Shown here: positions 3,508 to 54,279 of the stretch, piece after piece
Numbering within the stretch: position 1 is the stretch's first letter
Layout: the number at the start of each line of letters is the position of its first letter
Translations under genes and position numbers: made by a program
Notes under the pieces: model-generated
Told to the model about the DNA's origin: nothing
The model's input: the letters and a program-made list of their open reading frames with translations, nothing else
The model's database searches: none
Sequence record: ON568341.1
Direction: 5' to 3' (one strand)
DNA from: Escherichia phage UE-S1
Length of the DNA: 64,000 bases

Positions 3508-4299
3508 ATGAAATTTGTTGTAACGTCAGACGTACACGGTGGCACTGATTACCTCCATAGTGGTGATTACAGTGATACAGTACTGTTCATTGCTGGAGAC
3601 TTCGATGAAGTTAAACGCAGTCGTTACCGTACTGGTATCGAATCACTATGTAAGCAGTTCAAAAATGTAGTGCTGGTTCCTGGCAATCACGAATACTATG
3701 GTTCTAATATCCACAAAACGCATAAAGTTCTATCTGACATGCAAGATGAGATTCCCAATTTCATCTTTTTGCAAAACAAATTTGTATGGCTGGATGGGGT
3801 ACTTCTTGTTGGTAGTACTCTGTGGACAGACTTCGATAAAGGTAACTCTTTGACTAAGTTTGATGCTCGTCAAAAGATGAATGATTATAAACATATCCGT
3901 CATGGAACAACATCCGAGCCTTGGCGTAAGAAGTTGACACCAGATGATACGGAGTTCATGCATTATAAAGATAAACAATTTATTAAAAATTCTATTGACA
4001 CGGCTCGCTTTATGCATGATAATGATTTCAAGGTAATTGTGATTACACATCACGCACCAAGTTATCAAAGTGTTTCACCAAAATATAAAAATGATTCCCT
4101 GAATGGCTGTTACTGTTCAGATATGGATCAGTACATTGAAGATTTGGGTGCTGATATTTGGATTCATGGTCATGTTCATAGTAGCTTTGACTACCACATT
4201 GGTAAGACACGTATCATTTGTAATCCACGAGGCTATGAATCGTACAGTGGTGCTTGTGAGAATTTTGATTACAATCCTAAATTAGTATTTGAAATTTAA
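3508..4299 (+). CDS. calcineurin-like metallophosphoesterase
   Basis: Motifs SDVHGG, IAGDFD, PGNHEY, ITHHAPS, HGHVHSS; GGAGG RBS. Confidence 0.75.
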   Translation: MKFVVTSDVHGGTDYLHSGDYSDTVLFIAGDFDEVKRSRYRTGIESLCKQFKNVVLVPGNHEYYGSNIHKTHKVLSDMQDEIPNFIFLQNKFVWLDGVLLVGSTLWTDFDKGNSLTKFDARQKMNDYKHIRHGTTSEPWRKKLTPDDTEFMHYKDKQFIKNSIDTARFMHDNDFKVIVITHHAPSYQSVSPKYKNDSLNGCYCSDMDQYIEDLGADIWIHGHVHSSFDYHIGKTRIICNPRGYESYSGACENFDYNPKLVFEI

Positions 4300-8281: not shown

Positions 8282-10183
8282 TTACGCACTGATTGTTACA
8301 GTTGCAGTATCTGTTTTATTACCATCAGCAGTAGCCACTGTAATGACTACAGAACCTTCTTCTAGAGCAGTTACTAATCCCTCATCACTAATAGATACTT
8401 TAGTAGGTTCATCTGCACTATAAGTTACTGATTTGTTAGTTGCGTTAGATGGAAGAACTTCTGGAACTAGTTGAACTGTTTTAGTACCTGATAGTGAAAG
8501 TTCAGTAGTTTTAGGTGTTAAACTAACACTGGATACAGGAACTGGAATATTAACAGTAATAACACCTTGACCTGTTTTACCACTTCCATCAGCAGCAGTT
8601 GCGATAATGTTTGCAGTACCATTAGTTAGTGCAGTTACAATACCAGTACTAGCATCAACTTTTGCTACAGCAGGTTCACTAGAAGACCATGTTACAGATT
8701 TATTAGTTGCGTTAGATGGAAGAACTTCAGCAGCCATTGCTTGAGTTGCTTTAACAGCAGTCAATGTTTTAGTTGCTGGAGTAACATTAATAGATGCTAC
8801 AGGAACTGGAATATTAACAGTTACCACGCAAACTTTAGTAAATCCACCATCAGATGTGGTTGCTGTAATATTTGCAGTACCGTTTGCAACAGCAGTGATT
8901 AACCCAGTTGGACTTACCGTTGCGACACCCTCAGCAGAAGTAGTGTATGAAATATCTTTACGACGAGCGTTATCTGGAATAACAGATGCAGTTAATTGTT
9001 GAGTAGCACCTACCGAAGTTAGGGTTGCGGTCAACGGAGTCATATTAATACCAGTTACTGGGATCGTTACATCAATCACTGATTCAGCAGTTTTAGCACC
9101 ATCATCAGTGGTAACAGTAATAGTTGTAGTACCGTTATCAACCGAAGTTACTAGACCAGTATTACTAACTTTTGCTACGTCTGGATATGAAGAAACATAT
9201 GAAACTGCTTTATTGGATGCAGTTGCAGGAGCAACGGTTGTTTCTAATTGTTTAGTATCACCTAATGTTGAGAATGTATAAGTACTAGGAGTCATAGTGA
9301 CACCAGATACCGGTGTTTTCACAGTGATAGTAGTAGTATCAGTTTTAGCACCATCTTCGGTTGTTGCTGTAATCACCACTGTACCGTTAGCAACACCAGT
9401 TACTAGACCAGAAGTAGGGTTAACGGTTGCTACATCAGGTGTTGCTGAAGACCATGTAACGTTTTTATTAGTTGCATCATCAGGAGATACTGTAGCCGTT
9501 AATTGTTGAGTACCGCCAACGTTAATTGTTGCAGTTTTAGGAGAAACAATAACACCACTAACTGGAGTTGTTACGGTAAATGCACAAACATCGGTGAAAC
9601 CACCATCATGAGTAGTAACTGTTACATTTGCATTACCATTAGCACGGGCAATTGCTAAACCAGTTTCAGCATCAACTTCAACTATTGTTGGAGCAGAGGA
9701 ACTATAACTTACTGTTTTATCATTTGCATAATCTGGATCAATTGTAGCTGATAGCTGTTGTGTACTACCAACTTTAAGTGCTACAACTTTAGGTGAAATA
9801 ATAACACCATCAACTGGAGTAGTATAATCACGTTTAACCACACGACCATTGTTCAATTTAATAATACGACCCATATAAAGAGTAGTATATCCCTTACTAA
9901 TCCCATCATCTACATAAATCATGAATGAATTGTCTTGAACCATATTAATTGCGTCTACTGGTTTAACGGAATTTGGAATGTCGATACCACGGGTATCATA
10001 CCAACACATGGAAACTTTGTAATAGATATCACCATTATCATTTATGAGATCATAAACGTTACTGGAACGTTGACGGTTAATATATAAAGTTTCGGTTAAC
10101 ACCTTACCATCGATTTTAGCGACAGAAACTTTAATACCACCAATACCAAATGGCAATTTACCTTCACTAGATATTGCTTTCAT
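8282..10183 (-). CDS. Ig-like (Big_2-type) repeat protein, possible virion decoration protein
   Basis: Only convincing - strand gene; ~150-aa N-terminal domain then about six ~80-aa repeats (VTVTTHDGGFTDVCAFTVT, ITATTEDGAKTDTTTITV, ITVTTDDGAKTAESVIDV); AAGGAAAG RBS. Confidence 0.75.
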   Translation of the reverse strand: MKAISSEGKLPFGIGGIKVSVAKIDGKVLTETLYINRQRSSNVYDLINDNGDIYYKVSMCWYDTRGIDIPNSVKPVDAINMVQDNSFMIYVDDGISKGYTTLYMGRIIKLNNGRVVKRDYTTPVDGVIISPKVVALKVGSTQQLSATIDPDYANDKTVSYSSSAPTIVEVDAETGLAIARANGNANVTVTTHDGGFTDVCAFTVTTPVSGVIVSPKTATINVGGTQQLTATVSPDDATNKNVTWSSATPDVATVNPTSGLVTGVANGTVVITATTEDGAKTDTTTITVKTPVSGVTMTPSTYTFSTLGDTKQLETTVAPATASNKAVSYVSSYPDVAKVSNTGLVTSVDNGTTTITVTTDDGAKTAESVIDVTIPVTGINMTPLTATLTSVGATQQLTASVIPDNARRKDISYTTSAEGVATVSPTGLITAVANGTANITATTSDGGFTKVCVVTVNIPVPVASINVTPATKTLTAVKATQAMAAEVLPSNATNKSVTWSSSEPAVAKVDASTGIVTALTNGTANIIATAADGSGKTGQGVITVNIPVPVSSVSLTPKTTELSLSGTKTVQLVPEVLPSNATNKSVTYSADEPTKVSISDEGLVTALEEGSVVITVATADGNKTDTATVTISA

Positions 10184-10219: not shown

Positions 10220-10227
10220 TATTTATA
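10220..10227 (-). promoter_or_regulatory. T4-late-type TATAAATA box
   Basis: TATAAATA on - strand ~37 nt upstream of the Ig-like gene start. Confidence 0.4.
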
Positions 10228-12295: not shown

Positions 12296-12304
12296 GGATT
12301 GCGT

Positions 12305-13057
12305 ATGATATCAGAAAAATTTATAAGTAATGAAGGAAACAAGAGATTACTTATCATCTCAGGAGCAGGTCTTTCCGTTGAAAGTGGGATGGAGCCATTT
12401 CGATTTGATGATGGCTTATGGGATACATTTAAAATTAATGACGTATGTAATATTGCAAATTTAGATACAAAATATCATGTTGTTCATTCGTTTTATAACA
12501 CACTGCGTGTTAAACTGGGTCAATGTGAACCAAATGCAATGCATTATTTTATCAAATCCTTAGAGGATCAATATGGTGATTGTTTCCTTCATATGACCTC
12601 CAACATGGATGATCTTTATACACGTATTGGTGGTAAAGAACTCAAACTTCATGGTAATTTGTGTGAAGTGATAGAAAATTATAGTATTAATGGTGATGAT
12701 TATAACATTGTTAACTGTGGTTATGAGCCATATATACCAAAACATGATGTTTTTGCTAAACCAAATGTAGTGATGATTGGTGAATATCACCGTTACGTTG
12801 ATGGTGTTCGTTTGCCAATATACGAAGAAAGAAATAATGTTTTAAAAACACTTACCGAAAACGATACTGTGATTGTTATTGGAAGTAGCGATACAGTGCT
12901 TGTGTGGTCCAGATTAGCTGCGGCATTGCCCTGTTATAGCGTTAATGTTAACATTCGCAAAAATGATAATGATTTTCTGTTCAATGAAAAAATTATCAAA
13001 CCAGCTACCAAAGCAATACATCAATTAGAGACTATAATTAAGGAACGTATGAAATGA
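12305..13057 (+). CDS. Sir2-family (sirtuin-like) NAD-dependent protein
   Basis: GAGLSVESGMEPFR (NAD-binding GAGIS..GIPDFR motif), TSNMDDL (TQNID-like), LHGNL (catalytic His), VIVIGSSDT; no Zn-binding Cys pairs; start at first ATG (track ORF begins at TTG 12299). Confidence 0.7.
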   Translation: MISEKFISNEGNKRLLIISGAGLSVESGMEPFRFDDGLWDTFKINDVCNIANLDTKYHVVHSFYNTLRVKLGQCEPNAMHYFIKSLEDQYGDCFLHMTSNMDDLYTRIGGKELKLHGNLCEVIENYSINGDDYNIVNCGYEPYIPKHDVFAKPNVVMIGEYHRYVDGVRLPIYEERNNVLKTLTENDTVIVIGSSDTVLVWSRLAAALPCYSVNVNIRKNDNDFLFNEKIIKPATKAIHQLETIIKERMK

Positions 13058-13605
13058 GTGTTAAAGAAGTTCCTTTTGGTGAATATGGTTCACGTGCCAA
13101 TTTTGTATTTTGCTATTTCTTTGCAAGAAAATGTAACCCTTACGAAAATTACGAATTGAATGATATACCAGAAGTAAATTTAGTATTACTCCAATTACGA
13201 TGGGATGGCCTTCTAGGGGGATGTGGTGGGACAGTTGAAAGTACTGATATCTCACTAGAAGATGCGTTACGTCGTGAAATTCAAGAAGAGATGGATTACA
13301 ATATTTTTGTTTCCCATCTTCGACCACTTAAAACTTTTGAAATTTATCCAGGTGCAAACAGTCATAGTTTTAGCTATGAAGTAACCTATGATGAGTTGAA
13401 ACACATTAGAGATGGATACACTAATGCTAAACATGCGAGTGCTGAAGTGGCTGGTGTAAATTTATGTCATATTTCTCGTTATTCTAAGGGACAAAATCGA
13501 GAAGCGGGATATAATAATCTTATGACTCAGAACTTCATTGGTACAGCAAAACAAGAATTGGAGTATCTGGTTCAAAAAGAAAACTTACTAATTAGTTATC
13601 TATAG
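13054..13605 (+). CDS. Nudix-like hydrolase (non-canonical box)
   Basis: GGCGGTVESTDISLEDALRREIQEEMD approximates the Nudix box with a 3-residue insertion; start overlaps Sir2 stop (ATGA). Confidence 0.45.
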   Translation: MSVKEVPFGEYGSRANFVFCYFFARKCNPYENYELNDIPEVNLVLLQLRWDGLLGGCGGTVESTDISLEDALRREIQEEMDYNIFVSHLRPLKTFEIYPGANSHSFSYEVTYDELKHIRDGYTNAKHASAEVAGVNLCHISRYSKGQNREAGYNNLMTQNFIGTAKQELEYLVQKENLLISYL

Positions 13606-14294: not shown

Positions 14295-15734
14295 ATGAAA
14301 AAATATACAATTGACACAAACGTACTTCTATCTGACCCTAATGCATCTATTGCGTTTGATGGTGCTGCAATCATTCTACCATTTACTGTTCTAGAAGAAT
14401 TGGATTCAATTAAGAGTCGTAGTGTGGATGTTTCACGAGATGCTCGCGTTGCTATTCGTAACATTGAAGCAATTATTGCAAATGCATCTCATGATGAAAT
14501 TAGTAGTTCTGGTGTTAATATTGCTGATGTTCATACCAATATGAATCCTGACAGCAAATTGTTTGTTATTACAAACGAAGAAGCTGAAGCACTAATTCGT
14601 ACTAAAGGTTCAAACGACAAAGTTCAAACCCTTCTCAAAAGCACTGTACCTGATGATAAAATTATTCTGGTAGCTTTAGCAACCGAATCAGTACTGGTAA
14701 CTCGTGATATCAACATGCGTATCAAAGCACTAAGTTATGGTGTCGAGGTACAAGACTATCGTCATGATATTGTTATTGGTGATAGTGATTTGATTCACAT
14801 TGGTCAACATCATATGGAAATTAATTTTTGGGATGTATATAGCAATTTAACAAATACAAATATTAAAACTGAACAAATCGGTCGTCGATTGTATCATTAC
14901 ATCCCTAAAAGCTTGATTGAGCATTTGCTTCCACAAAATCTATGTATTGGTGATTATCTATATGATGATGCTGATGTATTATTTGTATACGAAGGTCAAT
15001 CAGCCATTGAGGAAGATGATGGTACACTAACACCAGAAGATATTTTGGTATTCCAAGATATTGGTCAATCAGTAGCGTTGCGTACTAAAGTATGGGATAT
15101 TAAAGCAAAGAATATTCAGCAAGCACTTGCCATCAACAGTATTCTCGATCCTGATGTACATCTAACAGTACTACTAGGTTCGGCTGGAACTGGCAAAACA
15201 TTAGTGACGATTGCTACTGCACTAGAGTTAGTACTGGAAAAACGCAAATATGACCGTGTTGTGTTCTCAAAACCACAAGATTCACAATGGGCTGAAATTG
15301 GTTTCTTACCAGGTTCCGAAATGGAAAAAATGCTACCACATTGTGGCCCTGCACTGGATGCATTAGAATTTTTACACAAAGATGATGCCTCACCACAAGG
15401 TAGTATCGAAGAGATTCTTAAACGTAACGTGATGCAATTTAAAGCACTAAACTTTGTGCGTGGACGCTCATTCACTAATACGATTCTTGTAGTTGATGAA
15501 TTCCAAAACATTACACCTGCACAAGCAAAAACTATCTTGACACGAGCAGGATTAAACTGTAAAGTAGTGATTATGGGAAACTTAGCACAGATTGATAGCA
15601 AATTTATCAGTCCAGTAAACAGTGGTTTGACATATGTAACTGAAAAATTCAAAGATTGGAGTGGTTGCCGTATCATTGAATTAGAAGGTGTTGTTCGTTC
15701 ACCACTTGCTGAATTTGCTGAAGAAAATATGTAA
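14295..15734 (+). CDS. phoH: PIN-domain PhoH-like ATPase
   Basis: N-terminal PIN motif (IDTNVLL..PFTVLEELD); Walker A GSAGTGKT in C-terminal PhoH domain. Confidence 0.8.
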   Translation: MKKYTIDTNVLLSDPNASIAFDGAAIILPFTVLEELDSIKSRSVDVSRDARVAIRNIEAIIANASHDEISSSGVNIADVHTNMNPDSKLFVITNEEAEALIRTKGSNDKVQTLLKSTVPDDKIILVALATESVLVTRDINMRIKALSYGVEVQDYRHDIVIGDSDLIHIGQHHMEINFWDVYSNLTNTNIKTEQIGRRLYHYIPKSLIEHLLPQNLCIGDYLYDDADVLFVYEGQSAIEEDDGTLTPEDILVFQDIGQSVALRTKVWDIKAKNIQQALAINSILDPDVHLTVLLGSAGTGKTLVTIATALELVLEKRKYDRVVFSKPQDSQWAEIGFLPGSEMEKMLPHCGPALDALEFLHKDDASPQGSIEEILKRNVMQFKALNFVRGRSFTNTILVVDEFQNITPAQAKTILTRAGLNCKVVIMGNLAQIDSKFISPVNSGLTYVTEKFKDWSGCRIIELEGVVRSPLAEFAEENM

Positions 15735-24384: not shown

Positions 24385-24744
24385 ATGTTAGAAGCTAAAC
24401 AGGTAATGTCAGGTGAACATCGTGGAACTATTTTTCTAAAAGAAGATGATGTTGTAAAAATTGTAGTATCTAAAACTTTTTCCGAAGATGATGAAGTACT
24501 ATTGAGTACTTTTGATGGTGAGGTTCTACGTGATGTACAGATCAAACATGAACCAGTAATTGAAGGTGGTCAGCATTTAAATGTAAATGTCTTATCTAAA
24601 GAACAACTCATTGATGCACAAAATAATCCAGAAAAATATCCGCAACTTACCATTCGTGTCAGTGGTTATGCTGTTCGTTTCAATTCACTAACAAAAGAAC
24701 AACAAGATGATGTAATTTCTCGTACCTTTACAAAGGAAATTTGA
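24385..24744 (+). CDS. grcA: autonomous glycyl-radical cofactor protein (GrcA/YfiD-like)
   Basis: [11 protein letters not shown] and [26 protein letters not shown] are near-identical to the E. coli GrcA / PFL C-terminal glycyl-radical domain. Confidence 0.75.
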
Positions 24745-25070
24745 TGGATTTAAAGCCAATTGTGGTTAACAAATACAAAGAACCGTATGATGTGTACATT
24801 GGTCGTGGGTCTAAATGGGGTAACCCATTTACCCATATCAATGATAAACAGACGAAAGCCGAGTTCATTGTTGCTACAAGGGAAGAATCAATCGAAAAGT
24901 TCAGAGAATACATAATTGAACGTATTTCTAATGGCGAAGTTAAAATTGATGATTTACTTGAATTAGCAGGGAAACGTCTTGGTTGTTTCTGTAAACCAAA
25001 ATCATGTCATGGTGATGTTCTCGTTGAAATAGTGAGTGCAATACTAGATGAATTACCAGACGATAATTAA
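24741..25070 (+). CDS. DUF4326-like small protein
   Basis: [11 protein letters not shown] and [14 protein letters not shown] motifs. Confidence 0.5.
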
Positions 25071-25554: not shown

Positions 25555-25562
25555 TATAAATA
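25555..25562 (+). promoter_or_regulatory. T4-late-type TATAAATA box
   Basis: Exact TATAAATA ~30 nt upstream of tail fibre ATG, just after the nrdG terminator. Confidence 0.45.
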
Positions 25563-25593: not shown

Positions 25594-28293
25594 ATGATGT
25601 CAAAGAAAATATATGGTGGATTAGATGTCACACATAATGTGACAGTTAATGGAAAAAGAACAATACAAGGTATTAACAAACAAGTGTTTGACGAAAATGG
25701 TAATATGGTGTTGGATACATATTCAAAAAATGAAATGAATGATATCATTGGTATGTTACCAATTTCACATTATGGTTCCATGAACTATCTACCTGCTGGG
25801 GTCGGTGGGGATTTCAATGGTGCATCAGAAAATCAGGCATATCGCAGGAATAAGGTATTATTGGAAAATGATGGAACACTCGTTCTTTTGCGTAGTGGTA
25901 CAAACGGTAGTGTTGAAGGTTTATATTATTCTTATTTGTCTAATGCATTAGCAGTTACTGATATGAGTCGTACAATTAACACAAGTCGTCAATACAAACC
26001 AGGATTCTTCGGTCCAAATCGTGTTGCACTTGGTTTATTTAACACTGATCAAAATATTATAATGGGGAGATATAAAGATATTTCAAACAACACAATTGGT
26101 ACATTCATTTCTATTACTAATGGTACACTTAATGATACATTACACACAGGTTTTTTTGTAAATCAAACTGATATATCACCTGAAGGTGGTGTTGAATATG
26201 CTATGATGGCAGAAGACGGTTCAATATATGTTTTTAATGTAATTAATGAAAATAATAAATTTGAAATAGCCATTGTTAAAGTTGTATTTAATGTGGATAA
26301 TGGTTCTTACACAGCAACCCGCATCACAGGGTGGACTACAAAAACATTTTATAATACTACTTATTCTGGGCAAAATAATATTGTGATAACTAATGCAATG
26401 ACGTCAACTAATATTGCGGATAAGCCTTATGTATTTGTTCCTCCGAATTTGTATGGTATGGGGATTTATATGACATCTATTGATTTATATGTTGCACAAC
26501 AACCAGGAACACAAAATTTTCGTTTCAGGATGAATGGTGACGCTTATTTCGCCATGCCAACATATAGTTCGCGTCCACAACACAATTATAGTTTCACGTT
26601 CGATATGAACTCAAAGCAATGTACATTAGATGCAGGTAACGATATTGGCTCCTTCCAAGCACCGTTGGTTATAACAAATACAGGTTCTGACTTAGTTGCA
26701 TCTGGTAATGTGTTGAATTTAGACCCACTATATGACCACAATGGATATAGAAACATTTATAGTTCATATTTTTATTTAAATTCTGGTGACGTGTTTTGTA
26801 CTGCATGTCCAAACTTAGCAGAGCCACTCGCTATGCAAAAAGCAAAGTTTCCTGTGCAAATAGTATATAACATGTTAAATGTTCGTGCTGTTATATCATC
26901 AAACTTCATAGGTGGTATCGTCCGACCATCATTTGGTTCAGCGGTTGGTTCATATATTAATGGCGTTGAACTACTTCCAGATAACAGTACTAAACAATAT
27001 TCACGAGCATCTGGTTCAGGTGGTTTTAGTCCGTCATATGCAGTTCATAAAAGTACTCCGAATTTTACATTTCAATCGTTATCATTGGGAACAATTCAAG
27101 GTTATGAACCCACCACTGAGCGTAAAAATGTAAGTGAAAATAACAACAATAGAATTTTCATTAGTACTGTGTCTGGGTCAACAGTTACAACTAATGGTGG
27201 TATTTTTATGGTCGGACAACGTTATTCACAATCACTGTCTTTTGATAAAAACTTAAATGGTACAGGTAGTATTAGTGTTTCGCAATCAGTTCTTGATGGG
27301 TTCAGAGACTCTGAATATGCTAAAGTTTTAAGTGATTGGAATTTATCTCCGCAAGCGGGTAAAGATATGACATTGTTTGTACCGCAACAAGCGGATATTC
27401 CAGCATTTGTCATGCTCAGTACAATAACTAATGATTTTAAAAACTACATTAGAATTGCTGAAGTTAATGTAAACACCAGAGTAGGTGAAATCAAATCGAT
27501 AACATTCAAGCGTTTAGTTCTTGAAAATAGATATGGTGATAGTTTCACACCGAATGTTGGCGGTTATATTGCACCATCATCTGTTGGTTTAACAATTTAT
27601 GATGGTGGTTCTTTTTATTTCATTGGCGGTTCAGATCCATTAACACATCCAACAATTGGTAATACAGCAACACACATATTTCGTGCATACGTAAACAAAT
27701 CATCTGCACAATTTGAGAGTTTTATTATTGATGGTATCCATGCGTACTATAATCAAGGCCGTCAATTCACTGCATTACCTGATATTGGATTTGGATATTT
27801 TGATACAATAGACTATGATAACAAAATGATTTTCCGCAAATGTGGAACTACTATTGAAGAATATAATAACTGGAAAGAACAAGGTAATCCAATCAACGTT
27901 GTTTCACAAGATGTTGCACAAGGATTTGTTGTTTATTTTACAGAAGAAACTCCAGTTATTCTTTCTGGTAAATCATTTACCTTACCAGTGTCAAATATTG
28001 ATTTAAGAACAATAAAGCCAAACCCAGCCAATACAACATTTCATGTATATGTTAAGTTAAAACAAGGATTAGTAACTTATCATATAACTACCGATGTTAT
28101 TTCAGAAACTGGGACAATTGCATATAATATATTGTGGATAGGAACAATTAGAACTAACGATATTCAAATTGTATCAATTGATATACAAAAACGTTCACGA
28201 TTGGATATTTTTGGTGCTTCACTTGAAGCGGCAGGGGTTTCGTTCCCAGTCAGCTACGGTCTACCATCACAAACAGGAACCATAAACTGGTAA
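25594..28293 (+). CDS. tail fibre protein (paralogue A, 899 aa)
   Basis: Large Ser/Thr/Asn/Gly-rich protein; paralogous to 28911-31643; conserved C-terminal module ending TGTINW; TATAAATA late-promoter-like box upstream. Confidence 0.65.
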   Translation: MMSKKIYGGLDVTHNVTVNGKRTIQGINKQVFDENGNMVLDTYSKNEMNDIIGMLPISHYGSMNYLPAGVGGDFNGASENQAYRRNKVLLENDGTLVLLRSGTNGSVEGLYYSYLSNALAVTDMSRTINTSRQYKPGFFGPNRVALGLFNTDQNIIMGRYKDISNNTIGTFISITNGTLNDTLHTGFFVNQTDISPEGGVEYAMMAEDGSIYVFNVINENNKFEIAIVKVVFNVDNGSYTATRITGWTTKTFYNTTYSGQNNIVITNAMTSTNIADKPYVFVPPNLYGMGIYMTSIDLYVAQQPGTQNFRFRMNGDAYFAMPTYSSRPQHNYSFTFDMNSKQCTLDAGNDIGSFQAPLVITNTGSDLVASGNVLNLDPLYDHNGYRNIYSSYFYLNSGDVFCTACPNLAEPLAMQKAKFPVQIVYNMLNVRAVISSNFIGGIVRPSFGSAVGSYINGVELLPDNSTKQYSRASGSGGFSPSYAVHKSTPNFTFQSLSLGTIQGYEPTTERKNVSENNNNRIFISTVSGSTVTTNGGIFMVGQRYSQSLSFDKNLNGTGSISVSQSVLDGFRDSEYAKVLSDWNLSPQAGKDMTLFVPQQADIPAFVMLSTITNDFKNYIRIAEVNVNTRVGEIKSITFKRLVLENRYGDSFTPNVGGYIAPSSVGLTIYDGGSFYFIGGSDPLTHPTIGNTATHIFRAYVNKSSAQFESFIIDGIHAYYNQGRQFTALPDIGFGYFDTIDYDNKMIFRKCGTTIEEYNNWKEQGNPINVVSQDVAQGFVVYFTEETPVILSGKSFTLPVSNIDLRTIKPNPANTTFHVYVKLKQGLVTYHITTDVISETGTIAYNILWIGTIRTNDIQIVSIDIQKRSRLDIFGASLEAAGVSFPVSYGLPSQTGTINW

Positions 28294-33314: not shown

Positions 33315-33716
33315 ATGACTACAGTTGATGATATCTATAGTACTATACGAAATATGAGTACAGATAGAAAAGTATTTGGTGATAAAGAAAAATCTAAGTG
33401 TTATGGTATTGATTCTTTTGATATAATTTCGTATGAGTACAACACGAATGGAAATAGTTCACTGAATATCGTCTGCCCTCGTGACCCAGAAAATAATTTT
33501 ATGTATGTTGAAATTAATAATGATGGGATGTTTTTTACAAAAGTTTTCAAAGGTGGTATTAATTACGAACCTATTGAATGTATGAATGAAGAAACTTTCT
33601 TTCAAGAAGATACAATTATCAATTTAGGTTTTAGTTTTGCGGATTATAAAACATTAGAACATGACTTTAATCGTTATTATAACGGTTTCTTAAAGGAGTT
33701 AACAATTTATCTATGA
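33315..33716 (+). CDS. hypothetical protein
   Basis: ORF in array. Confidence 0.45.
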   Translation: MTTVDDIYSTIRNMSTDRKVFGDKEKSKCYGIDSFDIISYEYNTNGNSSLNIVCPRDPENNFMYVEINNDGMFFTKVFKGGINYEPIECMNEETFFQEDTIINLGFSFADYKTLEHDFNRYYNGFLKELTIYL

Positions 33717-34945
33717 ATAACCAATATGTTGAACAAACAATAGTGAAACACTTGGCTGGGTCACAAGCCTACGGAACCAGTACGCCTGAAAGTGATACTG
33801 ATTATCGTGGTATTTTTCTTGCTAATAAAGAATTTATTCTTACGCCATTCTATAAGGTTAAAGAAGTAGCTGATAAAAATGAAGAAGATACCAAATTCTA
33901 TGAGTTAAATCAGTATTTAAAATTATACACTGAAGCCAACCCTAATATTCTGGAATCACTATGGGTTGAACCAGAACACATTGTAGAAAGTACTGAGATT
34001 TATGACTATCTTCGTTCATTTAACCAAAAACTTCTTAGTTCTAAGATTGCATTTTCATATACTGGATATGCATATAATCAGATTAAGCGTATGACAAATC
34101 ATCACGGTTGGATGGATAAAGAGCGAATTGCTGAAAAACGTTTAAATGAGATTTTAGAAGAACACCCTGTCGATGAGGTTCTTGCGTGGATGTATGATTC
34201 ATTCCCACAATATCTTGTTGAACGTTTAGATACATCTAACTTACATCCATTTAATACTAAAAAGATTGATTTTGAAAAATATATGCGTGATACGTCATTG
34301 CAGTTAGTTTCGAAAAATCCATTAAAGCAATATCATTTTGTAAGATTAGTGCATAACTACACTACTGACAAAATTCTAGATCGTGATTTCAATTTATTGA
34401 ATTTTAATAATGGCTATGAACTAATTCATTACGGAGAAAACATTTTTGCGATTATTAAAAATCCAAATGAAAGCACTATCAACGGTGATGGATCATTGCG
34501 TTATTTTTCTAAAGAGCGTAGTACTGAAGAATTGAAAACTAAACCAGAACTAATTGTCAAATTTAACGAAAAAGAATATCAGGAAAATAGTGAGAATAGA
34601 AAAAGTTATCATAAATGGAAAGAAAATCGTAATGCCAAACGTGCTATTTTAGAATCACAACACGGATACGATTGTAAACATGCTATGCACACAATCCGAC
34701 TTTTGAATAGTGCAGAAGAAGCATTACAAAGTGGAATTATTCAAGTTAAACGACCAGATGCACAAATGTTGATGGATATTCGTAATGGTAAATGGAAGTA
34801 TGAAGAAGTCTTAGAATATTTCGATGATAAAGTACAATACATTCGTGATGTTCTATATAAGAAATCAGTACTTCCCAAAAAACCTAACATCAAGTTAGCA
34901 TCGAAAATTATAATTGATATTCGAGAAATGCAATGGTATAAGTAA
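33713..34945 (+). CDS. pol-beta-superfamily nucleotidyltransferase
   Basis: N-terminal GSQAYGTSTPESDTDYRG matches the NTase-fold signature G[SG]..(9-13)..D.D; 410 aa with uncharacterised C-terminal region. Confidence 0.55.
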   Translation: MNNQYVEQTIVKHLAGSQAYGTSTPESDTDYRGIFLANKEFILTPFYKVKEVADKNEEDTKFYELNQYLKLYTEANPNILESLWVEPEHIVESTEIYDYLRSFNQKLLSSKIAFSYTGYAYNQIKRMTNHHGWMDKERIAEKRLNEILEEHPVDEVLAWMYDSFPQYLVERLDTSNLHPFNTKKIDFEKYMRDTSLQLVSKNPLKQYHFVRLVHNYTTDKILDRDFNLLNFNNGYELIHYGENIFAIIKNPNESTINGDGSLRYFSKERSTEELKTKPELIVKFNEKEYQENSENRKSYHKWKENRNAKRAILESQHGYDCKHAMHTIRLLNSAEEALQSGIIQVKRPDAQMLMDIRNGKWKYEEVLEYFDDKVQYIRDVLYKKSVLPKKPNIKLASKIIIDIREMQWYK

Positions 34946-45617: not shown

Positions 45618-45950
45618 ATGCTAAATCTAAATATTCAAGGCAACGTTGATATCACTCCAGCAATCCAAGATGCTATTTATAATGAAGCAAAAAGTCTGGA
45701 TAAGTACCGTACTTCTTCAGTACTAGACATTGGTGTTCATGTTAAGAAAGAGCATAAAACTCAATATGCTGTAACTTTAACTGCTGGTAGTAAATCAGTA
45801 ACTGCTGATGATGCTGATTTGTATAAAGCAATTGTTGAATCTTTTGATAAGATGGAAACTGTATTCAGTAAAGACAAAAGCATTAAATTACACCGCCGAA
45901 ACCATCCAGAACACCCCGTTCTTGATGATTTGACAGAAAACGAAGAGTAA
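45618..45950 (+). CDS. hypothetical protein
   Basis: AAGGAAGG RBS; terminator follows. Confidence 0.5.
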   Translation: MLNLNIQGNVDITPAIQDAIYNEAKSLDKYRTSSVLDIGVHVKKEHKTQYAVTLTAGSKSVTADDADLYKAIVESFDKMETVFSKDKSIKLHRRNHPEHPVLDDLTENEE

Positions 45951-47549: not shown

Positions 47550-48662
47550 ATGAAAAAGTATTTGGTTGGCGGTTACGTCCGTGACCGTTTAATGGGTCTT
47601 CGTGCAAAAGACAAAGATTATGTCATTGTTGGTGCATCCGAATCTGATCTTAAGTACTTGCAAAGTATTGGCTATAAGCAAGTAGGTAAGGATTTCCCAG
47701 TATATCTAAGTCCAGAAGGTAATGAACACGCATTAGCCCGTACTGAGCGTAAAACTGGTACTGGATATGGTGGATTTGAAGTGGATACAAAAGGCGTAAC
47801 ACTAGAACAAGATTTGTATCGCCGTGACCTTACAATAAACAGTATCGCGTATGATCCAGTACTGCAAATTCACATCGACCCATACGGTGGAAAAGCTGAT
47901 ATCAAGAATAAAGTTCTACGCCATGTATCCGAACACTTCAAAGAAGATCCATTGCGTGTATTACGCCTGTGTCGCTTTGCAACGCGTTATTCTGATTTCT
48001 CTATACACGAGACTACTGAAGCACTTGTCATCGATATGGTAGCGTCTGGTGAGCTAAATCATCTTGTTCCAGACCGTGTTTTTGTGGAATTTGAAAAAGC
48101 ACTGTCGGAAGAAAAGCCAGCTAAGTTCCTTAAGACTCTAAGTCATTTTGGTTATTACGAAAATGTGTTTAAAACACCATTGACCAAAAAGAATTTGGAT
48201 CTCATTGATTATATTTCAGATAACTGTACTGATGTATATAAACCATATTTTCTGTGGTCTATTCTTCTAGAAAATGAAGAAGTAAATAATGACTCAGAAA
48301 TTAACGGTGCTATTAAAGTTCCTGTTAAATATGTCAAATTTAGTAATTACATCAAACTTTTCCGTGATGATATCAAAACATTCCGTAAAAAGACCCCAAA
48401 TGAAATGGGACAGTTATTACTGGATATGAATATTAAAAATAATGGAGGTGAAGAATTCCTTTATAAAGTGTTGGAATACTTCATTTTGCGAAAAGAAATT
48501 GATTTAGAACTTGAAGATCTAATTATTAAAGTTTATGATCGTTATACTGATGTTGAATTACCTGATATTCAGCAAATGGTTAAAGATGGTGAACTTGAAA
48601 CGTCAGAAATTCGTGATTTTGTTTGTGAACTCCGATGTGAAGCAATCAAGAAACTATTCTAA
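47550..48662 (+). CDS. tRNA nucleotidyltransferase (CCA-adding enzyme)
   Basis: N-terminal GGYVRDRLMG and KDKDYV match the Pol-beta head domain of CCA-adding enzymes / poly(A) polymerases. Confidence 0.7.
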   Translation: MKKYLVGGYVRDRLMGLRAKDKDYVIVGASESDLKYLQSIGYKQVGKDFPVYLSPEGNEHALARTERKTGTGYGGFEVDTKGVTLEQDLYRRDLTINSIAYDPVLQIHIDPYGGKADIKNKVLRHVSEHFKEDPLRVLRLCRFATRYSDFSIHETTEALVIDMVASGELNHLVPDRVFVEFEKALSEEKPAKFLKTLSHFGYYENVFKTPLTKKNLDLIDYISDNCTDVYKPYFLWSILLENEEVNNDSEINGAIKVPVKYVKFSNYIKLFRDDIKTFRKKTPNEMGQLLLDMNIKNNGGEEFLYKVLEYFILRKEIDLELEDLIIKVYDRYTDVELPDIQQMVKDGELETSEIRDFVCELRCEAIKKLF

Positions 48663-48770
48663 AAAACAGTGGGACAGAATACCAATAACTGATATAATTA
48701 TTAGTATCTGAACATCGATTGATGAAAAAGAGATAAGATATGCGTTATAGTTGTGGTATAATATTTTATC

Positions 48771-49172
48771 GTGATGGTCAGATACTTATCGGACATACAA
48801 CACGGACAGAAACATTGGGATTTACCTAAAGGGAAAGCAGAGGGTGAAGAAACATTCAAAGAAGCTGCTGTGCGTGAATGTTTTGAAGAGACAGGATACG
48901 AAATCGATGAAGATGATCTTCTGTTTCTTGGTGATGTATCCTATAGAAAGGGAAAAAGGTTGGTTCTTTTCTTTTATACTGCTAAAGACAAGCCTGTACC
49001 AGATGAATTAGTATGTAAAAGTACATATACTAATAGATATGGTAAGAGTCATCCAGAATTGGATAAGTTCATGTACATTGATGTGCGAGAATGTCAAAAG
49101 TATTTGACTGAACGAATGTGTAACAGTATAATAAAAGCGGTTAAAGCTTTTCAAAGAAATAAAAGGAAATAA
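48771..49172 (+). CDS. Nudix hydrolase (N-terminal strand encoded in a different frame; possible frameshift)
   Basis: Canonical Nudix box GKAEGEETFKEAAVRECFEETGYEI; a 29-codon ORF at 48740-48829 in another frame encodes MRYSCGIIFYRDGQILIGHTTRT, the expected Nudix N-terminal strand. Confidence 0.55.
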   Translation: MMVRYLSDIQHGQKHWDLPKGKAEGEETFKEAAVRECFEETGYEIDEDDLLFLGDVSYRKGKRLVLFFYTAKDKPVPDELVCKSTYTNRYGKSHPELDKFMYIDVRECQKYLTERMCNSIIKAVKAFQRNKRK

Positions 49173-49173
49173 T

Positions 49174-49422
49174 ATGAAAGTTAAAATTTATGGTCGCACG
49201 ACTGGTTGTAAATTTTGCGATACTGCAAAAGCTGTATGTGAGCAAAATAAATTTGACATGGAATTTGTAGATATTGTTACTGAAGGTATTGATGGTGCAA
49301 AGCTATCAGAAATTTGTGGTGAGCCAGTACGTCAGGTTCCTCAAATTTTTGTAAATGACATTTATGTACCTGGGGGTTGTACTGGATTTATTGAAGGACT
49401 TAAAGAAGGTCGTTGGAAATAA
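49174..49422 (+). CDS. nrdC: glutaredoxin/thioredoxin (NrdC-like)
   Basis: KIYGRTTGCKFCDTAK CxxC active site; overall resemblance to T4 NrdC (KVYG..C.YCDNAK .. PQ.F). Confidence 0.65.
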   Translation: MKVKIYGRTTGCKFCDTAKAVCEQNKFDMEFVDIVTEGIDGAKLSEICGEPVRQVPQIFVNDIYVPGGCTGFIEGLKEGRWK

Positions 49423-49664
49423 TGGATATTGAAAAAGTATCATCTCGTGCAAAACAACTAGCTGACACGTTGGGAGTAGAGTTCAAAATTCCTGATATCA
49501 CCATCGCTAAAGAAAAAGCACAGAATAAAATTAATAAGATGAAAGAATATCTATCTAAACAGGAGCAATATGATTCTGCTGTAGAATTTATTATGAAATC
49601 ATTTAGTAAAGATGATATTTTGGCATTCATCAAATATGTGAAGGTTTCTGGTAACCCTAAATAA
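49422..49664 (+). CDS. hypothetical protein
   Basis: Start overlaps upstream stop (TAATG). Confidence 0.45.
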   Translation: MDIEKVSSRAKQLADTLGVEFKIPDITIAKEKAQNKINKMKEYLSKQEQYDSAVEFIMKSFSKDDILAFIKYVKVSGNPK

Positions 49665-49694
49665 CAATGAAGAACAAAAGTTCTTCTTAACAAT

Positions 49695-49949
49695 TTGGGA
49701 GATACTATTATGCTCAGTTTTCGTGAACAATTAGCAAAAGGTCAAATTAAGACTCAAGCTCAAACTAATATTCCTAAAAAATCTGCATTTTTGGGAACAA
49801 TTACGGAAGATGGATATTGTGACTATGATGCACCAGAAGATTCATGGTATATTACAAAAGACACAAAACGTAGTAATAGACTTCACAAAAGTACAATAGC
49901 TAGAAAGCATCGAAAAGAATTGAAAAAAATTCGTTTCGGTGAAGAATAA
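49695..49949 (+). CDS. small basic protein
   Basis: GGGAGA RBS; terminator follows. Confidence 0.45.
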   Translation: MGDTIMLSFREQLAKGQIKTQAQTNIPKKSAFLGTITEDGYCDYDAPEDSWYITKDTKRSNRLHKSTIARKHRKELKKIRFGEE

Positions 49950-49963
49950 TAAAATATAAATTA

Positions 49964-49993
49964 AGGACTCTGTGTTTGGAGTCCTTTCTTTTC
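49964..49993 (+). terminator. intrinsic terminator
   Basis: AGGACTC / GAGTCCT stem then T-rich run. Confidence 0.7.
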
Positions 49994-50003
49994 GGAGAAC
50001 ATA

Positions 50004-50480
50004 ATGATACATGAGCACCGAGGTAATCTGTTTGAATTGTTCAGTACTGTAACCGATGATGAAACTGCATTGCATATTATTGCACATGGTTGCAACGCCC
50101 AAGGTAAAATGGGTTCTGGTTTTGCAAAAGAACTAAGAAATCGTTACCCAATGGCATATGATGATTATAAAGCATATGAAAAGGAAATGGGATTTCTAAG
50201 AACTGGAAAAATTGCATATTCTTCGGTAAGTGATGATTTACTTATTGCAAACTGTATTACCCAACAATTCTACGGGAATGATGGTAAAAAATATGTAAGT
50301 TATGATGCAATTGATGATATTTTCAAAGAGATAAATTACTTATGTAATATTGAACGTAGTGTTTATGTACACTTTCCGAAAATTGGAGCCGATTTGGGTG
50401 GTGGTAACTGGAACGTTATCAAAGAAATTATTGATCACAGACTGGTCAATGCAGAAAAACACTTATATATTCTAAAATAA
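50004..50480 (+). CDS. macro-domain protein (ADP-ribose binding/processing)
   Basis: HGCNAQGKMGSGFAKEL and HFPKIGADLGGGNW resemble macro-domain Gly-rich loops. Confidence 0.6.
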   Translation: MIHEHRGNLFELFSTVTDDETALHIIAHGCNAQGKMGSGFAKELRNRYPMAYDDYKAYEKEMGFLRTGKIAYSSVSDDLLIANCITQQFYGNDGKKYVSYDAIDDIFKEINYLCNIERSVYVHFPKIGADLGGGNWNVIKEIIDHRLVNAEKHLYILK

Positions 50481-50491
50481 TCAAAAAGGAC

Positions 50492-50809
50492 TTGACAAAA
50501 ATGACTATGACCGTTAAACTACTAAACATCAATAACATTGGCCCAGTACTAGCTGTTCTTCAAACTGATTCTGCTGAAGCAGTGGTAGTTAACTACCCAG
50601 CACAATTAGGTACTGATGAAAATGGTGAAATCATTCTTCGTGATTATCTAGAGTTTGTTAGTATGGAGAAAAATGTTATTTTTTATAAATCCAACATTAT
50701 TAGTGTTAGTGATGCAAACCCTGCATTAGTTGATGCTTATGTTGATGCTATTAAAGCAATCGAAGACACTCCAAAAGTTTTTGTTCCTGAGAATAAAATT
50801 ATTCTATAA
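50492..50809 (+). CDS. hypothetical protein
   Basis: ORF in array. Confidence 0.5.
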   Translation: MTKMTMTVKLLNINNIGPVLAVLQTDSAEAVVVNYPAQLGTDENGEIILRDYLEFVSMEKNVIFYKSNIISVSDANPALVDAYVDAIKAIEDTPKVFVPENKIIL

Positions 50810-50823
50810 TAGAGGTATATAAA

Positions 50824-51201
50824 ATGGCTGTTAATGACGTTAAAGTAAAAACTATTCAAGCTATCGTAGTACTGAAAGATTCAACTCCATCTCCAAAAGA
50901 ATTGGTAATGGCTGGGATGACAATGCTTCATCAATACAATCCTGAATCACCAAATTATGTTCAAGAATACGAAGCAAAGCAGTTTAAAGAACATTGGCAG
51001 TCATGGATTAAAGATAATGAAATGGAGCAAGTTGTTTATGCTGCTGATGACATTTTCGAATTAGAACAAATTGAATATCTAGCAGGTCAACAATCTGTGC
51101 CGTTGAGTATCTTCGGTAATGGTGAAGAAGTCTTAGTTCTAGGACCATTCACTGCCGATGTAATTACACACTTACTAAGTAATTGTGAAAAAATTGGCTA
51201 A
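50824..51201 (+). CDS. hypothetical protein
   Basis: ORF in array. Confidence 0.5.
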   Translation: MAVNDVKVKTIQAIVVLKDSTPSPKELVMAGMTMLHQYNPESPNYVQEYEAKQFKEHWQSWIKDNEMEQVVYAADDIFELEQIEYLAGQQSVPLSIFGNGEEVLVLGPFTADVITHLLSNCEKIG

Positions 51202-51412
51202 ATGCTTAAAATTATCAGGATACCGAAACAATACATTGATGTTAAATAATATAAAGTATTGGGTTGATCCATACTTTAATAATTCATTGTTAATGTACAG
51301 AGATAAAAGTCGAGATTTATACGGAATATATGTTACACAGTTAATATATGCTATAGATTCAGAACATTTTACTCCGTTGGTATACCTGTACTGTTTGTAT
51401 AATTCAGAATAA
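51185..51412 (+). CDS. small hypothetical protein
   Basis: ORF overlapping upstream stop. Confidence 0.35.
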   Translation: MKKLAKCLKLSGYRNNTLMLNNIKYWVDPYFNNSLLMYRDKSRDLYGIYVTQLIYAIDSEHFTPLVYLYCLYNSE

Positions 51413-51417
51413 GTATT

Positions 51418-51465
51418 AGCACCTCTAAATAATGTATATATAAACATTAATGAGGTGCTTTTTTA
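51418..51465 (+). terminator. long-loop hairpin with T-run
   Basis: AGCACCTC / GAGGTGCT stem, 26-nt AT-rich loop, T6 running into the next ATG. Confidence 0.4.
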
Positions 51466-52256
51466 TGTCTTACAATTATATGGGTGGAAATCCAGATGCT
51501 CCTAACTTTGATCATCGTGAAAAACTGAAAGATGTTATCACTCAAATGTTGGGAGCAGGTGCAGTTGAGGTAGAAATTACTGATGGTCAATTAGAAATTG
51601 CAATTGATAATGCTGTATCAAATTACAGAGCGTGGAGTTCTGCTTCTAAAGAAGAAGCTTTTTTAAATATGAAATTTTATGATTCACAATCTGTATATAT
51701 GCTCCCAACTGAAGTTGAAATAGTTAAAAAGATTTACCGCTATGGTAATGGTTATTTAAGTTCTGGGTCAGGTAACAGCGTAGACCCATTCTCATTGGCA
51801 TTCACGAATACATATCTATTGACGTCGGCTAGGAATGCAGGTGGATATGATCTAACAACTTATGATTTCAGCTTTCAATTTCAAGAATTGGTTGGTCGTA
51901 TGTTTGGACGTGAAATTATATTCCAATTTAACCCAATGACTAAGAAACTTATTATTGATCGTGATATTCGCGGTACAGAAGAAGTATTACTACATGTGTA
52001 TCATAATATTCCAGAACCATTATTGTTCCAACGTCAGCAAAGCTACCCGTGGCTTCGTGATTGGGCATTGTCTGAAGCAATGATTATGCTTGGTCGTAAC
52101 CGTGCTAAGTTTGCTAGTTTGCCTGGACCACAAGGGACATTTTCAATGGATGGTGATACATTAAGAAATGAAGGTATCCAATTACAAGAACAACTAAAAG
52201 AACAGTTGAAGCGATATAAAGATGGTGGAGAACCACTTGGAATGATTATCGGGTAA
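51465..52256 (+). CDS. hypothetical protein (possible virion/tail-associated)
   Basis: Track ORF 51450-52256 trimmed to MSYNYMGG Met; sits upstream of the tail module. Confidence 0.45.
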   Translation: MSYNYMGGNPDAPNFDHREKLKDVITQMLGAGAVEVEITDGQLEIAIDNAVSNYRAWSSASKEEAFLNMKFYDSQSVYMLPTEVEIVKKIYRYGNGYLSSGSGNSVDPFSLAFTNTYLLTSARNAGGYDLTTYDFSFQFQELVGRMFGREIIFQFNPMTKKLIIDRDIRGTEEVLLHVYHNIPEPLLFQRQQSYPWLRDWALSEAMIMLGRNRAKFASLPGPQGTFSMDGDTLRNEGIQLQEQLKEQLKRYKDGGEPLGMIIG

Positions 52257-52284
52257 ATTTTAAACATTAAAAAAAGAGTACTAT

Positions 52285-54279
52285 ATGAATAATGAAGAAT
52301 TGAAAAAACTTTTGTTGTCAAAACATATTAATTCATGGGTACATTTATACAAAGGGGACTCTCATGTGAGAGATCTCCTTTCTGTTTTTGGAATAGAACC
52401 AAAAACTGATTTCGAAATATATAAAATTCTATATATGTTCATGAATGATATAACAACAGTTCCAACTGCATATTGTGGAAAAAAAGCAAGATACAAAAAT
52501 TTTCAAAAAGGATTTTATAAATTTTGTGATGATTATGTAATTAATAAGAAAAATACGTGTAATGTATGCCATGAGATGTATTATAAAAATCGAACTAATA
52601 AAACAAAATCAACATTAATGAATATGTATGGTGTATCTAATGTATCCCAGATCCAAGAAGTAAAACAAAAGAAAGAAAAAACTAACATTGAACGTTATGG
52701 TGTCTCTACTAATTTACAGACAACAGAATCTAAAGAGAAAATCAAACAAACTAATATAGAGCGATATGGATGTGAATATCCAAATCAAAACCCTGAAATA
52801 TTCAATAAAGTAAAAGAAACAAATTTAAAAAAGTATGGTGTTGAATTCCAAAGTAAAAGAAATGAAGTAAAAGAGAAAGCCAAAAATACAAATATATTAA
52901 GATACGGAACTGAGTATTCTTTATCATCACCGACTATTCGCGAAAAAATCAATAAAACAAATCTTGAACGATATGGTGGAAACCCACTATCAAATAAAAT
53001 TATCCAAGATAAAATAAAAAACACCAACACATTGAAGTATAATTCATTTTATCCAATGAGCAATATGAGTATTCAGGAAAAAGTTCATAATACCAATGTG
53101 GAACGATATGGTGTAAAATACCCAGCCCAAAATAATTCTATCATTGAAAAAATGAAAGAAACCACAAAAAATAGATATGGTTCAGAACACTACTCACAAA
53201 CAGATGAGTATAAAGATAAAATATCACTTGCCCGTCTAGACGAAAGATATAATATAATTGTTGCAAATATTGATAAAAACTATATTCCATTATTTGAAAA
53301 TACCGATCTGATTATGAAAGTTAATACAGACGAATACCCATTTTGGTGTGAGTATTGTGATGATTTGTTTTATAGTAAGTATAAAAATCATAAAGTGAAA
53401 TGTAAGTGTCAGAAAAATAATGGTCATTCCTTGAAAGAGAAAGATTTAGTTGATTATATAAAATCATTAATACCAAATACCGAAATCATAGAAAATGACC
53501 GTTCAGTACTGAAACCTAAAGAGTTGGATGTGTATATCCCTGACCGAAATCTAGCTATTGAATTTAATGGTGTGTATTGGCATAATGATGAAAATGTCAA
53601 TTCTACTAAACACCAAGATAAGGTATTGGATTGTTTAAAACATGGGGTGAATCTTATTCACATTTATGAAGATGAATGGGATAACCCATTAACAAATAAA
53701 ATAATCAAGGAACGTTTAAAGAATAAACTTCTAGTGTCAAATAGAATTTATGCTAGAAAATGTACTGTTAGAAATATAGACAAACAAGTAAGTAATATGT
53801 TTACTAAATCACACCATATTCAAGGTGTTGCACAAGCAAGTATTCACATTGGACTTTACTATGGAAGTGAGTTGGTTGCAGTTATGACCTTTGGTAAATC
53901 AAGGTTTGATAAAAACTATGAATATGAATTAATCAGATACTGTTCATCCGGTACAGTTGTTGGTGGTGCATCAAAATTACTAAAATATTTTGAAACAGTA
54001 TATAATCCACAATCATTATTGACATATGCGGATATGGATTGGAGTAGTGGTGATCTTTATACAGTTCTAGGCTTTGAGTTTGATAGTTATACAGAACCAG
54101 GATATTTTTATTATGACCCACAAACACATGAGAGGATTTCACGTCAGAAATGTCAAAAACATAAATTGGTCAAGAAAGGTTATGATATTAACTTAACCGA
54201 GAGACAAATTTGCTGTGATGTGTTGGGATATTATAAGATTTACAACTCTGGTAATATAAAATACACAAAAAAATATTAA
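52285..54279 (+). CDS. free-standing homing-endonuclease-like protein with tandem peptide repeats and a Vsr/PD-(D/E)xK-like nuclease core
   Basis: Eight or nine tandem ~23-29-aa repeats with core TN(I/L/V)ERYG; nuclease-like block ELDVYIPDRNLAIEFNGVYWH; extra C-terminal domain (GGASKLL). Confidence 0.6.
   Translation: MNNEELKKLLLSKHINSWVHLYKGDSHVRDLLSVFGIEPKTDFEIYKILYMFMNDITTVPTAYCGKKARYKNFQKGFYKFCDDYVINKKNTCNVCHEMYYKNRTNKTKSTLMNMYGVSNVSQIQEVKQKKEKTNIERYGVSTNLQTTESKEKIKQTNIERYGCEYPNQNPEIFNKVKETNLKKYGVEFQSKRNEVKEKAKNTNILRYGTEYSLSSPTIREKINKTNLERYGGNPLSNKIIQDKIKNTNTLKYNSFYPMSNMSIQEKVHNTNVERYGVKYPAQNNSIIEKMKETTKNRYGSEHYSQTDEYKDKISLARLDERYNIIVANIDKNYIPLFENTDLIMKVNTDEYPFWCEYCDDLFYSKYKNHKVKCKCQKNNGHSLKEKDLVDYIKSLIPNTEIIENDRSVLKPKELDVYIPDRNLAIEFNGVYWHNDENVNSTKHQDKVLDCLKHGVNLIHIYEDEWDNPLTNKIIKERLKNKLLVSNRIYARKCTVRNIDKQVSNMFTKSHHIQGVAQASIHIGLYYGSELVAVMTFGKSRFDKNYEYELIRYCSSGTVVGGASKLLKYFETVYNPQSLLTYADMDWSSGDLYTVLGFEFDSYTEPGYFYYDPQTHERISRQKCQKHKLVKKGYDINLTERQICCDVLGYYKIYNSGNIKYTKKY

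Follow-up and report, generated by a model that had tools for sequence, protein, structure and literature searches.

The window, by which is meant the whole stretch of 64,000 nucleotides of Escherichia phage UE-S1 (sequence record ON568341.1) that was analysed, carries at 50004-50480 (+) an open reading frame with an ATG start, 158 codons and a stop codon. Its product, referred to below as the macro protein, is a stand-alone macrodomain of the ALC1/TARG1-like class (SCO6735/BT1257 type). A ribosome-binding site, GGAG (49994-49997, +), can be read from the sequence 6 nt 5' of the ATG, and a terminator-like hairpin with a 10-bp stem, a 4-nt loop and a following TCTTTT (49963-49986, +) separates the macro gene from the small ORF that precedes it. 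Consensus scans counted five terminator-like sites in the region against 1.5 expected, and sigma-70-like promoter sites at chance level.

Just 5' of the hairpin is TATAAATT (49955-49962, +). A T4-type late promoter in front of the macro gene is not supported: this site is a 7/8 match, and the exact octamer is too rare in the window to serve as a guide. The octamer itself, TATAAATA, is strongly depleted, 13 copies being expected and 3 present (10220-10227, -; 25555-25562, +; 45674-45681, -). Of these, two sit 30-40 nt 5' of long ORFs (8282-10183, -, and 25594-28293), a placement that hints at T4-type late promoters in this phage.

A megablast search with positions 48000-53000 of the window matched 43 phage records. 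Escherichia phage ph0011 came first, at 92.5% identity and 99% query coverage; next were further Asteriusvirus jumbo phages (about 350 kb), among them 121Q, PBECO4 and Sharanji. Judged by nucleotide similarity, the window is Asteriusvirus DNA, that is, DNA of a 121Q/PBECO4-like jumbo coliphage. Orthologues of the macro gene are labelled 'macro domain-containing protein', 'Appr-1-p processing domain protein' or 'phosphatase' in GenBank relatives. The gene lies in a conserved order, namely CCA-adding enzyme (47550-48662), Nudix (48771-49172; E = 1.6e-12), glutaredoxin, two small ORFs, macro, two small ORFs and neck protein, which is kept in 121Q, in ph0011 and in the Alcyoneusvirus KP13-7, a Klebsiella phage. 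In a comparison of four orthologues in all, dN/dS was 0.07-0.17 against those of Asteriusviruses and 0.16-0.32 against that of KP13-7, and from these low values it was concluded that the macro gene is real and under purifying selection. Recent horizontal gain of the gene was rejected, since its GC content of 0.33 equals that of its flanks and synteny is kept in 121Q, ph0011 and KP13-7.

Other ORFs of this neighbourhood deserve mention in their own right. That at 50824-51201 is called an 'aminoacyl-tRNA hydrolase' in ph0011; here it is without a Pfam or NCBIfam match and falls in phrog_14786, a family of unknown function, so that the label looks unsupported. The ORF at 52285-54279 encodes 664 aa with many tandem copies of '..TN(I/L)xRYG..' and matches Pfam DUF7487 (3.4e-38), and its orthologue in ph0011 is annotated as an endonuclease-domain protein. 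Because ph0011 and TH47 align across this ORF, whereas 121Q-type genomes align only to about 52260, it is possibly a homing-endonuclease-like mobile element that inserted behind the neck gene.

Fold and class of the macro protein

In a phmmer search of PDB sequences, the macro protein retrieved BT1257 (E = 1.3e-16), SCO6735 (2.5e-11), Poa1p (4e-7) and DarG (about 1e-3); matches to glutamate receptor and integrase sequences in this search (E 0.19-1) were set aside as noise. A PDB search with a profile of 118 homologues added TARG1 at 1e-10 and raised all the other scores, bringing Poa1p to 8e-16, and E values below 1e-9 were reached by the ALC1/TARG1-like class only. The AlphaFold2 model, built from the 118-homologue alignment, has a pLDDT of 94 and a pTM of 0.91, and with it Foldseek returned 225 PDB matches at E<=0.001, of which the best 50 are almost all macrodomains. 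The top matches have a probability of 1.00, with a TM score of 0.80-0.82 for BT1257. BT1257, SCO6735, Poa1p, Thermus aquaticus DarG and TARG1 come first in the ranking, and coronavirus and MacroD-type domains stand behind them.

Comparison with the Pfam Macro family (PF01661), the check named in the original prediction, gave a divided answer: the match extends over 115 of the 118 model positions at E = 9e-4, but its 19.6 bits lie under the gathering score of 22. A precomputed PF01661 match is present on many homologues, and the sub-threshold score reflects sensitivity and is not evidence against the macrodomain fold. The sole PADLOC match of the macro protein is to DarG (2e-10; positions 17-136 of the 329-position model), and the sole NCBIfam match is to the macro part of the antitoxin DarG, which scores 30.4 bits where the cut-off is 250.

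Another fold, the outcome that was to have spoken against the original prediction, was given by no search, significant matches in Pfam, NCBIfam, PHROGs, PADLOC, the PDB sequence search and Foldseek being to macrodomains only. That a stand-alone macro-domain protein is encoded at 50004-50480, as had been proposed, is borne out by a real ORF and by agreement among the PDB, PHROG 335, AlphaFold2 and Foldseek evidence. On the modelled structure, assignment of the product to the macrodomain fold, three alpha/beta/alpha layers around a central mixed sheet, is secure. Because the nearest PDB relatives by sequence, profile and structure are BT1257, SCO6735, Poa1p, DarG and TARG1, the class is ALC1/TARG1-like and, within it, the SCO6735/BT1257 subclass, not MacroD or PARG.

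Active-site loops and the residue at position 130

SCO6735 residues were mapped onto the macro protein through the phmmer alignment, where the chain numbering of 5e3b is the native numbering plus 20 and all named residue types agree. In this way His24, Val25, Asn27, Gln85, Gly126 and Gly128 of SCO6735 were found to correspond to His28, Gly29, Asn31, Gln87, Gly128 and Asp130, respectively. Loop 1 with helix 1, HGCNAQGKMGSGFAKEL (50085-50135, +; residues 28-44), was placed by alignment to 5e3b and 2fg1, and loop 2, the phosphate-binding loop HFPKIGADLGGGNW (50370-50411, +), comprises residues 123-136. These two strings had been picked out beforehand as ADP-ribose-binding loops, and both align with the loops of SCO6735 and of BT1257 beyond chance. 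The codon for Gln87 (50262-50264, +) falls at the position of SCO6735 Gln85, TARG1 Lys84 and DarG Lys80, and opens the mobile loop QQFYGNDGKKYVSY (50262-50303, +), which extends over 14 residues from Gln87 to Tyr100.

The SCO6735/BT1257 subclass has a longer mobile loop, and in it Gln85 stands where TARG1 and DarG have their catalytic lysine (Lys84 and Lys80, respectively; PMC9411070). The loop has 15 residues in SCO6735, 16 in BT1257 and 10 in T4 Tk.4. In the macro protein pLDDT drops to 74 at residues 91-100, the sole lower-confidence segment of the model, and lysine or arginine is conserved at positions 95-96. Invariant throughout the 118 homologues are H28, G29, N31, Q87, G128 and G133; in the wider set of relatives N31 and Q87 are each present in 263 of 264 and H28 in 258. 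The SCO6735 residues that match this active site matter by mutagenesis (PMC9411070).

The deviation lies at residue 130, where the macro protein has aspartate and SCO6735, BT1257, TARG1, DarG, Poa1p and Tk.4 have glycine. In SCO6735 the G128E substitution at this site costs most of the activity, reportedly via a stiffer loop and DNA repulsion (PMC9411070), and this would suit a catalytically weakened ADP-ribose binder, serving as a sensor or sponge, in which the acidic residue of the phosphate loop impairs catalysis. That the macro protein is such a binder is nevertheless very improbable, given the invariance of His28, Asn31 and Gln87, the strong purifying selection and the latitude of the column itself. 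Among the 264 relatives, position 130 holds glycine in 174, aspartate in 52, alanine in 13, valine in 10 and a few others, glutamate, serine and threonine also occurring. In counts that ignore shared ancestry, a residue other than glycine at 130 goes with glycine at 132 in 88 of 90 relatives, and alanine at 132 goes with glycine at 130 in 39 of 41. Likewise, with shared ancestry again ignored, lysine or arginine occupies position 35 in 46 of the 52 relatives with Asp130 and in 44 of the 174 with Gly130.

Since residues other than glycine are tolerated at 130 together with Gly132, and Asp130 tends to come with lysine or arginine at 35, these co-occurrences suggest a compensated loop and not a dead enzyme; Lys35 and Asp130 may pair with each other over the cleft. 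Roughly a fifth of the relatives sampled, the Asterius/Alcyoneus jumbo-phage clade among them, have Asp130. That Asp130 together with the basic residue 35 on the opposite loop defines a macrodomain subtype whose active site is re-wired and whose preferred substrate is not DarT2-modified DNA is a doubtful proposition; candidate substrates for such a subtype could be RNA-base, protein or phosphorylated ADP-ribose. With Asp130/Lys35 as a natural variant, the importance of the 'invariant' loop glycine could be tested at little cost.

Candidate functions and the ADP-ribose genes of the window

By analogy with characterised homologues, we lean, without great assurance, towards the macro protein being an orphan antitoxin-like DNA ADP-ribosylglycohydrolase, of the phage AdfM type and the SCO6735/BT1257 subclass, that counters DarT2-type defence. 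In a host E. coli with a DarTG2-type system, the DarT2 toxin would ADP-ribosylate thymidines in single-stranded phage DNA, blocking replication. The macro protein would bind the ADP-ribose in two loops rich in glycine (residues 28-44 and 123-136), grip the DNA by means of the mobile loop with its basic residues (87-100 in all) and cleave the thymine-ribose bond by a lysine-independent, SCO6735-type mechanism, wherein Gln87 would place the substrate, Asn31 would lock Gln87 and the backbone of residue 29 would hold the water. Free ADP-ribose would be released and the base restored. The gene, its fold and class, the conserved active-site residues and the homology to Tk.4 and gp104 rest on the data given here; the substrate, the chemistry and the role in infection are what we infer.

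Reversal of DarT-type ADP-ribosylation had been put forward as a candidate role, and as a candidate it has gained experimental support in the homologues. T4 Tk.4 is AdfM (anti-DarT factor macrodomain), which a transposon screen and a clean knockout identified as needed on DarTG2 hosts (preprint 10.1101/2025.11.20.689424). PhiKZ gp104 is likewise an AdfM, taking DarT2-made ADP-ribose off DNA and rescuing cells from DarT2 (PMC13309987). SCO6735, too, hydrolyses ADP-ribose linked to thymidine in DNA, and E. coli is rescued from DarT by it (PMC9411070). More distant relatives of the macro gene adjoin Gad2, on a T5-like contig, or SAM synthetase and SAM lyase, on a 401-kb contig, and these neighbours fit an anti-defence role. 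Counting against the anti-DarT reading are an identity to Tk.4 of just 29% with a mobile loop of differing length, the promiscuity of SCO6735/TARG1-class enzymes, the location of the macro gene among tRNA- and RNA-related genes (CCA-adding enzyme, Nudix) with no obvious anti-defence island, and, as the main caveat, Asp130 in place of the conserved glycine. In the literature searched, no paper links an Asteriusvirus macro gene to DarTG; the one paper that this search turned up names only a T7-like kinase. The macro gene is undiscussed in the Sharanji genome paper, and macro genes are not covered in the paper on NAD and jumbo phages.

The main rival explanation looks to the NAD- and RNA-related genes of the window. 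These include a CobB-like Sir2 (12299-13057; Pfam SIR2, 7e-20), a Nudt16-like Nudix that overlaps it by 4 nt (13054-13605; 1e-18) and, after two small ORFs, a PIN-PhoH fusion protein (14295-15734; PIN_4 4e-20, PhoH 1.6e-42). The stretch 12299-15734 matches the sirtuin-Nudix-PIN neighbourhood, a predicted NAD-dependent RNA-repair module of jumbo phages (PMC9503650). Elsewhere lie a gene for the RNA-repair nucleotidyltransferase RlaP (33713-34945; 2.9e-16) and genes for an ATP-dependent ligase (992-2413) and a calcineurin-like phosphoesterase (3508-4299), which flank one for a protein with two CapR homology domains (2425-3495; 5e-16). A ribosome hibernation-factor-like protein (45618-45950; Ribosomal_S30AE, 3.3e-10) makes up, with RlaP and the CCA-adding enzyme, a large translation/RNA-maintenance gene set. 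As a separate observation, a DUF4326 protein is encoded at 24741-25070 (2.3e-24), between NrdD/GrcA-like genes and NrdG; DUF4326 has been proposed by comparative-genomics papers to be rhodanese-phosphatase-like and to act on phosphates of ADP-ribose derivatives, and it is a further candidate NAD/ADP-ribose gene, absent from the original prediction.

In such company the macro protein might be a Poa1p-like small-molecule enzyme, an ADP-ribose-1''-phosphate phosphatase or O-acyl-ADP-ribose deacylase, which would clear by-products of the phage's NAD-consuming enzymes (CobB-like Sir2, NAD-dependent RNA repair). Poa1p is a significant relative by both single-sequence and profile searches, the window carries the genes just described (Sir2, Nudt16-like Nudix, PIN-PhoH, RlaP, ATP-dependent ligase, metallophosphoesterase, CCA-adding enzyme), and a Nudix gene lies five genes upstream of the macro gene in conserved synteny. 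Processing of Appr1p and O-acyl-ADP-ribose from systems of this kind has been proposed for the Macro domains of phages in comparative-genomics papers, including PMC9503650. The Sir2 gene, however, is 37 kb from the macro gene, and sirtuin RNA-repair neighbourhoods are described as uncoupled from Macro genes (PMC9503650). The phage-collection matches differ too, with 1,768 records for the macro family, out of 50,697, and 974 for the Sir2 family. Of the putatively functional positions named in Poa1p mutant structures (His23, Ser30, Phe152), the alignments show only the histidine to be kept, as His28, the others being Lys35 and Gly132. The closest relatives of known activity, SCO6735 and Tk.4, moreover act on DNA adducts. 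A small-molecule role is on balance unlikely.

The same evidence bears on the ADP-ribose 'toolkit' of the original prediction. Its companion genes exist, the Sir2 and both Nudix genes lying where given above, and they co-occur in the window with the macro gene; with Sir2 37 kb away in an RNA-repair-like cluster, the 'toolkit' is therefore gene co-occurrence and no demonstrated system. Processing of products of the phage's own Sir2, the other role that had been suggested, finds no support, Sir2 lying that far upstream in a Sir2-Nudix-PIN/PhoH cluster, and functional coupling of the macro and Sir2 genes was rejected on these grounds and on the differing family distributions. The phage Sir2 gave no defence-type match in PADLOC.

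A different substrate, rather than a small molecule, has also to be weighed. SCO6735 and TARG1 are promiscuous and hydrolyse protein ADP-ribosylation and uracil-linked RNA ADP-ribose as well (PMC9411070), and because of this promiscuity some weight was given to a de-ADP-ribosylase for another macromolecule, be it protein-linked ADP-ribose (on Glu/Asp, from host or phage transferases) or uracil-linked RNA. The Asp130/Lys35 pair, which is specific to the subclade of the macro protein, could be the sign of a substrate switch, and genes with RNA-related functions lie nearby. An ADP-ribosyltransferase, though, was not seen in the window, and the known phenotypes of phage family members are against DarTG2 only, which leaves this alternative rather unlikely.

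The finding is correct but ordinary: the gene is already known, with its orthologue annotated in relatives, and its likely function follows from work of 2025-2026. The current view of phage counter-defence is unchanged by it. If the anti-DarT reading is true, 121Q/PBECO4-type jumbo coliphages hold a ready-made counter to DarTG2, which bears on host-range prediction for candidate therapeutic phages on DarTG2-carrying E. coli, and the recently defined AdfM family gains a branch of the glutamine type that resembles SCO6735 and has a long mobile loop.

Relation to anti-DarT factors and cellular macrodomains

The family to which the macro protein belongs is large, with 7,490 representatives at 50% clustering and E<=1e-3, and phrog_335 takes in the macro protein (4e-43), T4 Tk.4 (1e-65) and PhiKZ gp104 (8e-43). 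Like the macro protein, Tk.4 is a phage stand-alone macrodomain of about 155 aa with BT1257 as its top PDB match, and its further ranking (Poa1p, SCO6735, DarG, TARG1) is much the same. The relationship is recovered by BLASTP (29% identity, E = 4e-12) and by hhalign (99.6% probability, E = 1.4e-23), and the two proteins have in common the HGCN loop, Thr-Gln at the catalytic position and the PxIGA...GNW loop 2. They differ in the loop that follows the glutamine, which is four residues shorter in T4, and in the residues at two positions, T4 having Gly for Asp130 and Thr for Lys35. The T4 gene is set in the vs-tk region, unlike the Asteriusvirus macro locus, and genetic evidence of function exists for T4 alone.

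The closest solved structures are those of SCO6735 (PDB 5e3b) and of BT1257 from Bacteroides (2fg1/2afc), with TM scores of 0.76-0.82 and 23-26% identity. Both are like the macro protein in the His, Asn and Gln active-site residues and in having an extended mobile loop, and the mechanism without lysine that has been proposed for SCO6735 is presumably common to the phage protein. Both are cellular proteins, that of Streptomyces coelicolor (SCO6735) being DNA-damage regulated. SCO6735 Lys89 is Gly91 in the phage protein, where basic residues have moved to 95-96.

DarG, the DarTG2 antitoxin (PDB 5m31, 5m3i), has a macrodomain of the same class and carries out the reaction that is predicted for the macro protein. 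The macro protein differs from it in having Gln87 for the catalytic Lys80 (T. aquaticus), and it is without the C-terminal DarT-binding domain and without an adjacent darT; a true DarG antitoxin was ruled out on these three counts. PhiKZ gp104 is, like the macro protein, a phage stand-alone macrodomain of PHROG 335, but unlike it belongs to the DarG type proper and has the FPTK lysine, to which Gln87 aligns in hhalign (98.3% probability); its best PDB match is Mycobacterium tuberculosis DarG (9e-25). Gp104 is imported into the phage nucleus, and Asteriusviruses are not known to build one. Finally, yeast Poa1p, an ADP-ribose-1''-phosphate phosphatase (PDB 6lfq-6lfu), belongs to the same class and is the source of the 'phosphatase' label of PHROG 335; its TM score is lower, at 0.69, and its Ser30 and Phe152 are replaced in the phage protein by lysine and glycine.
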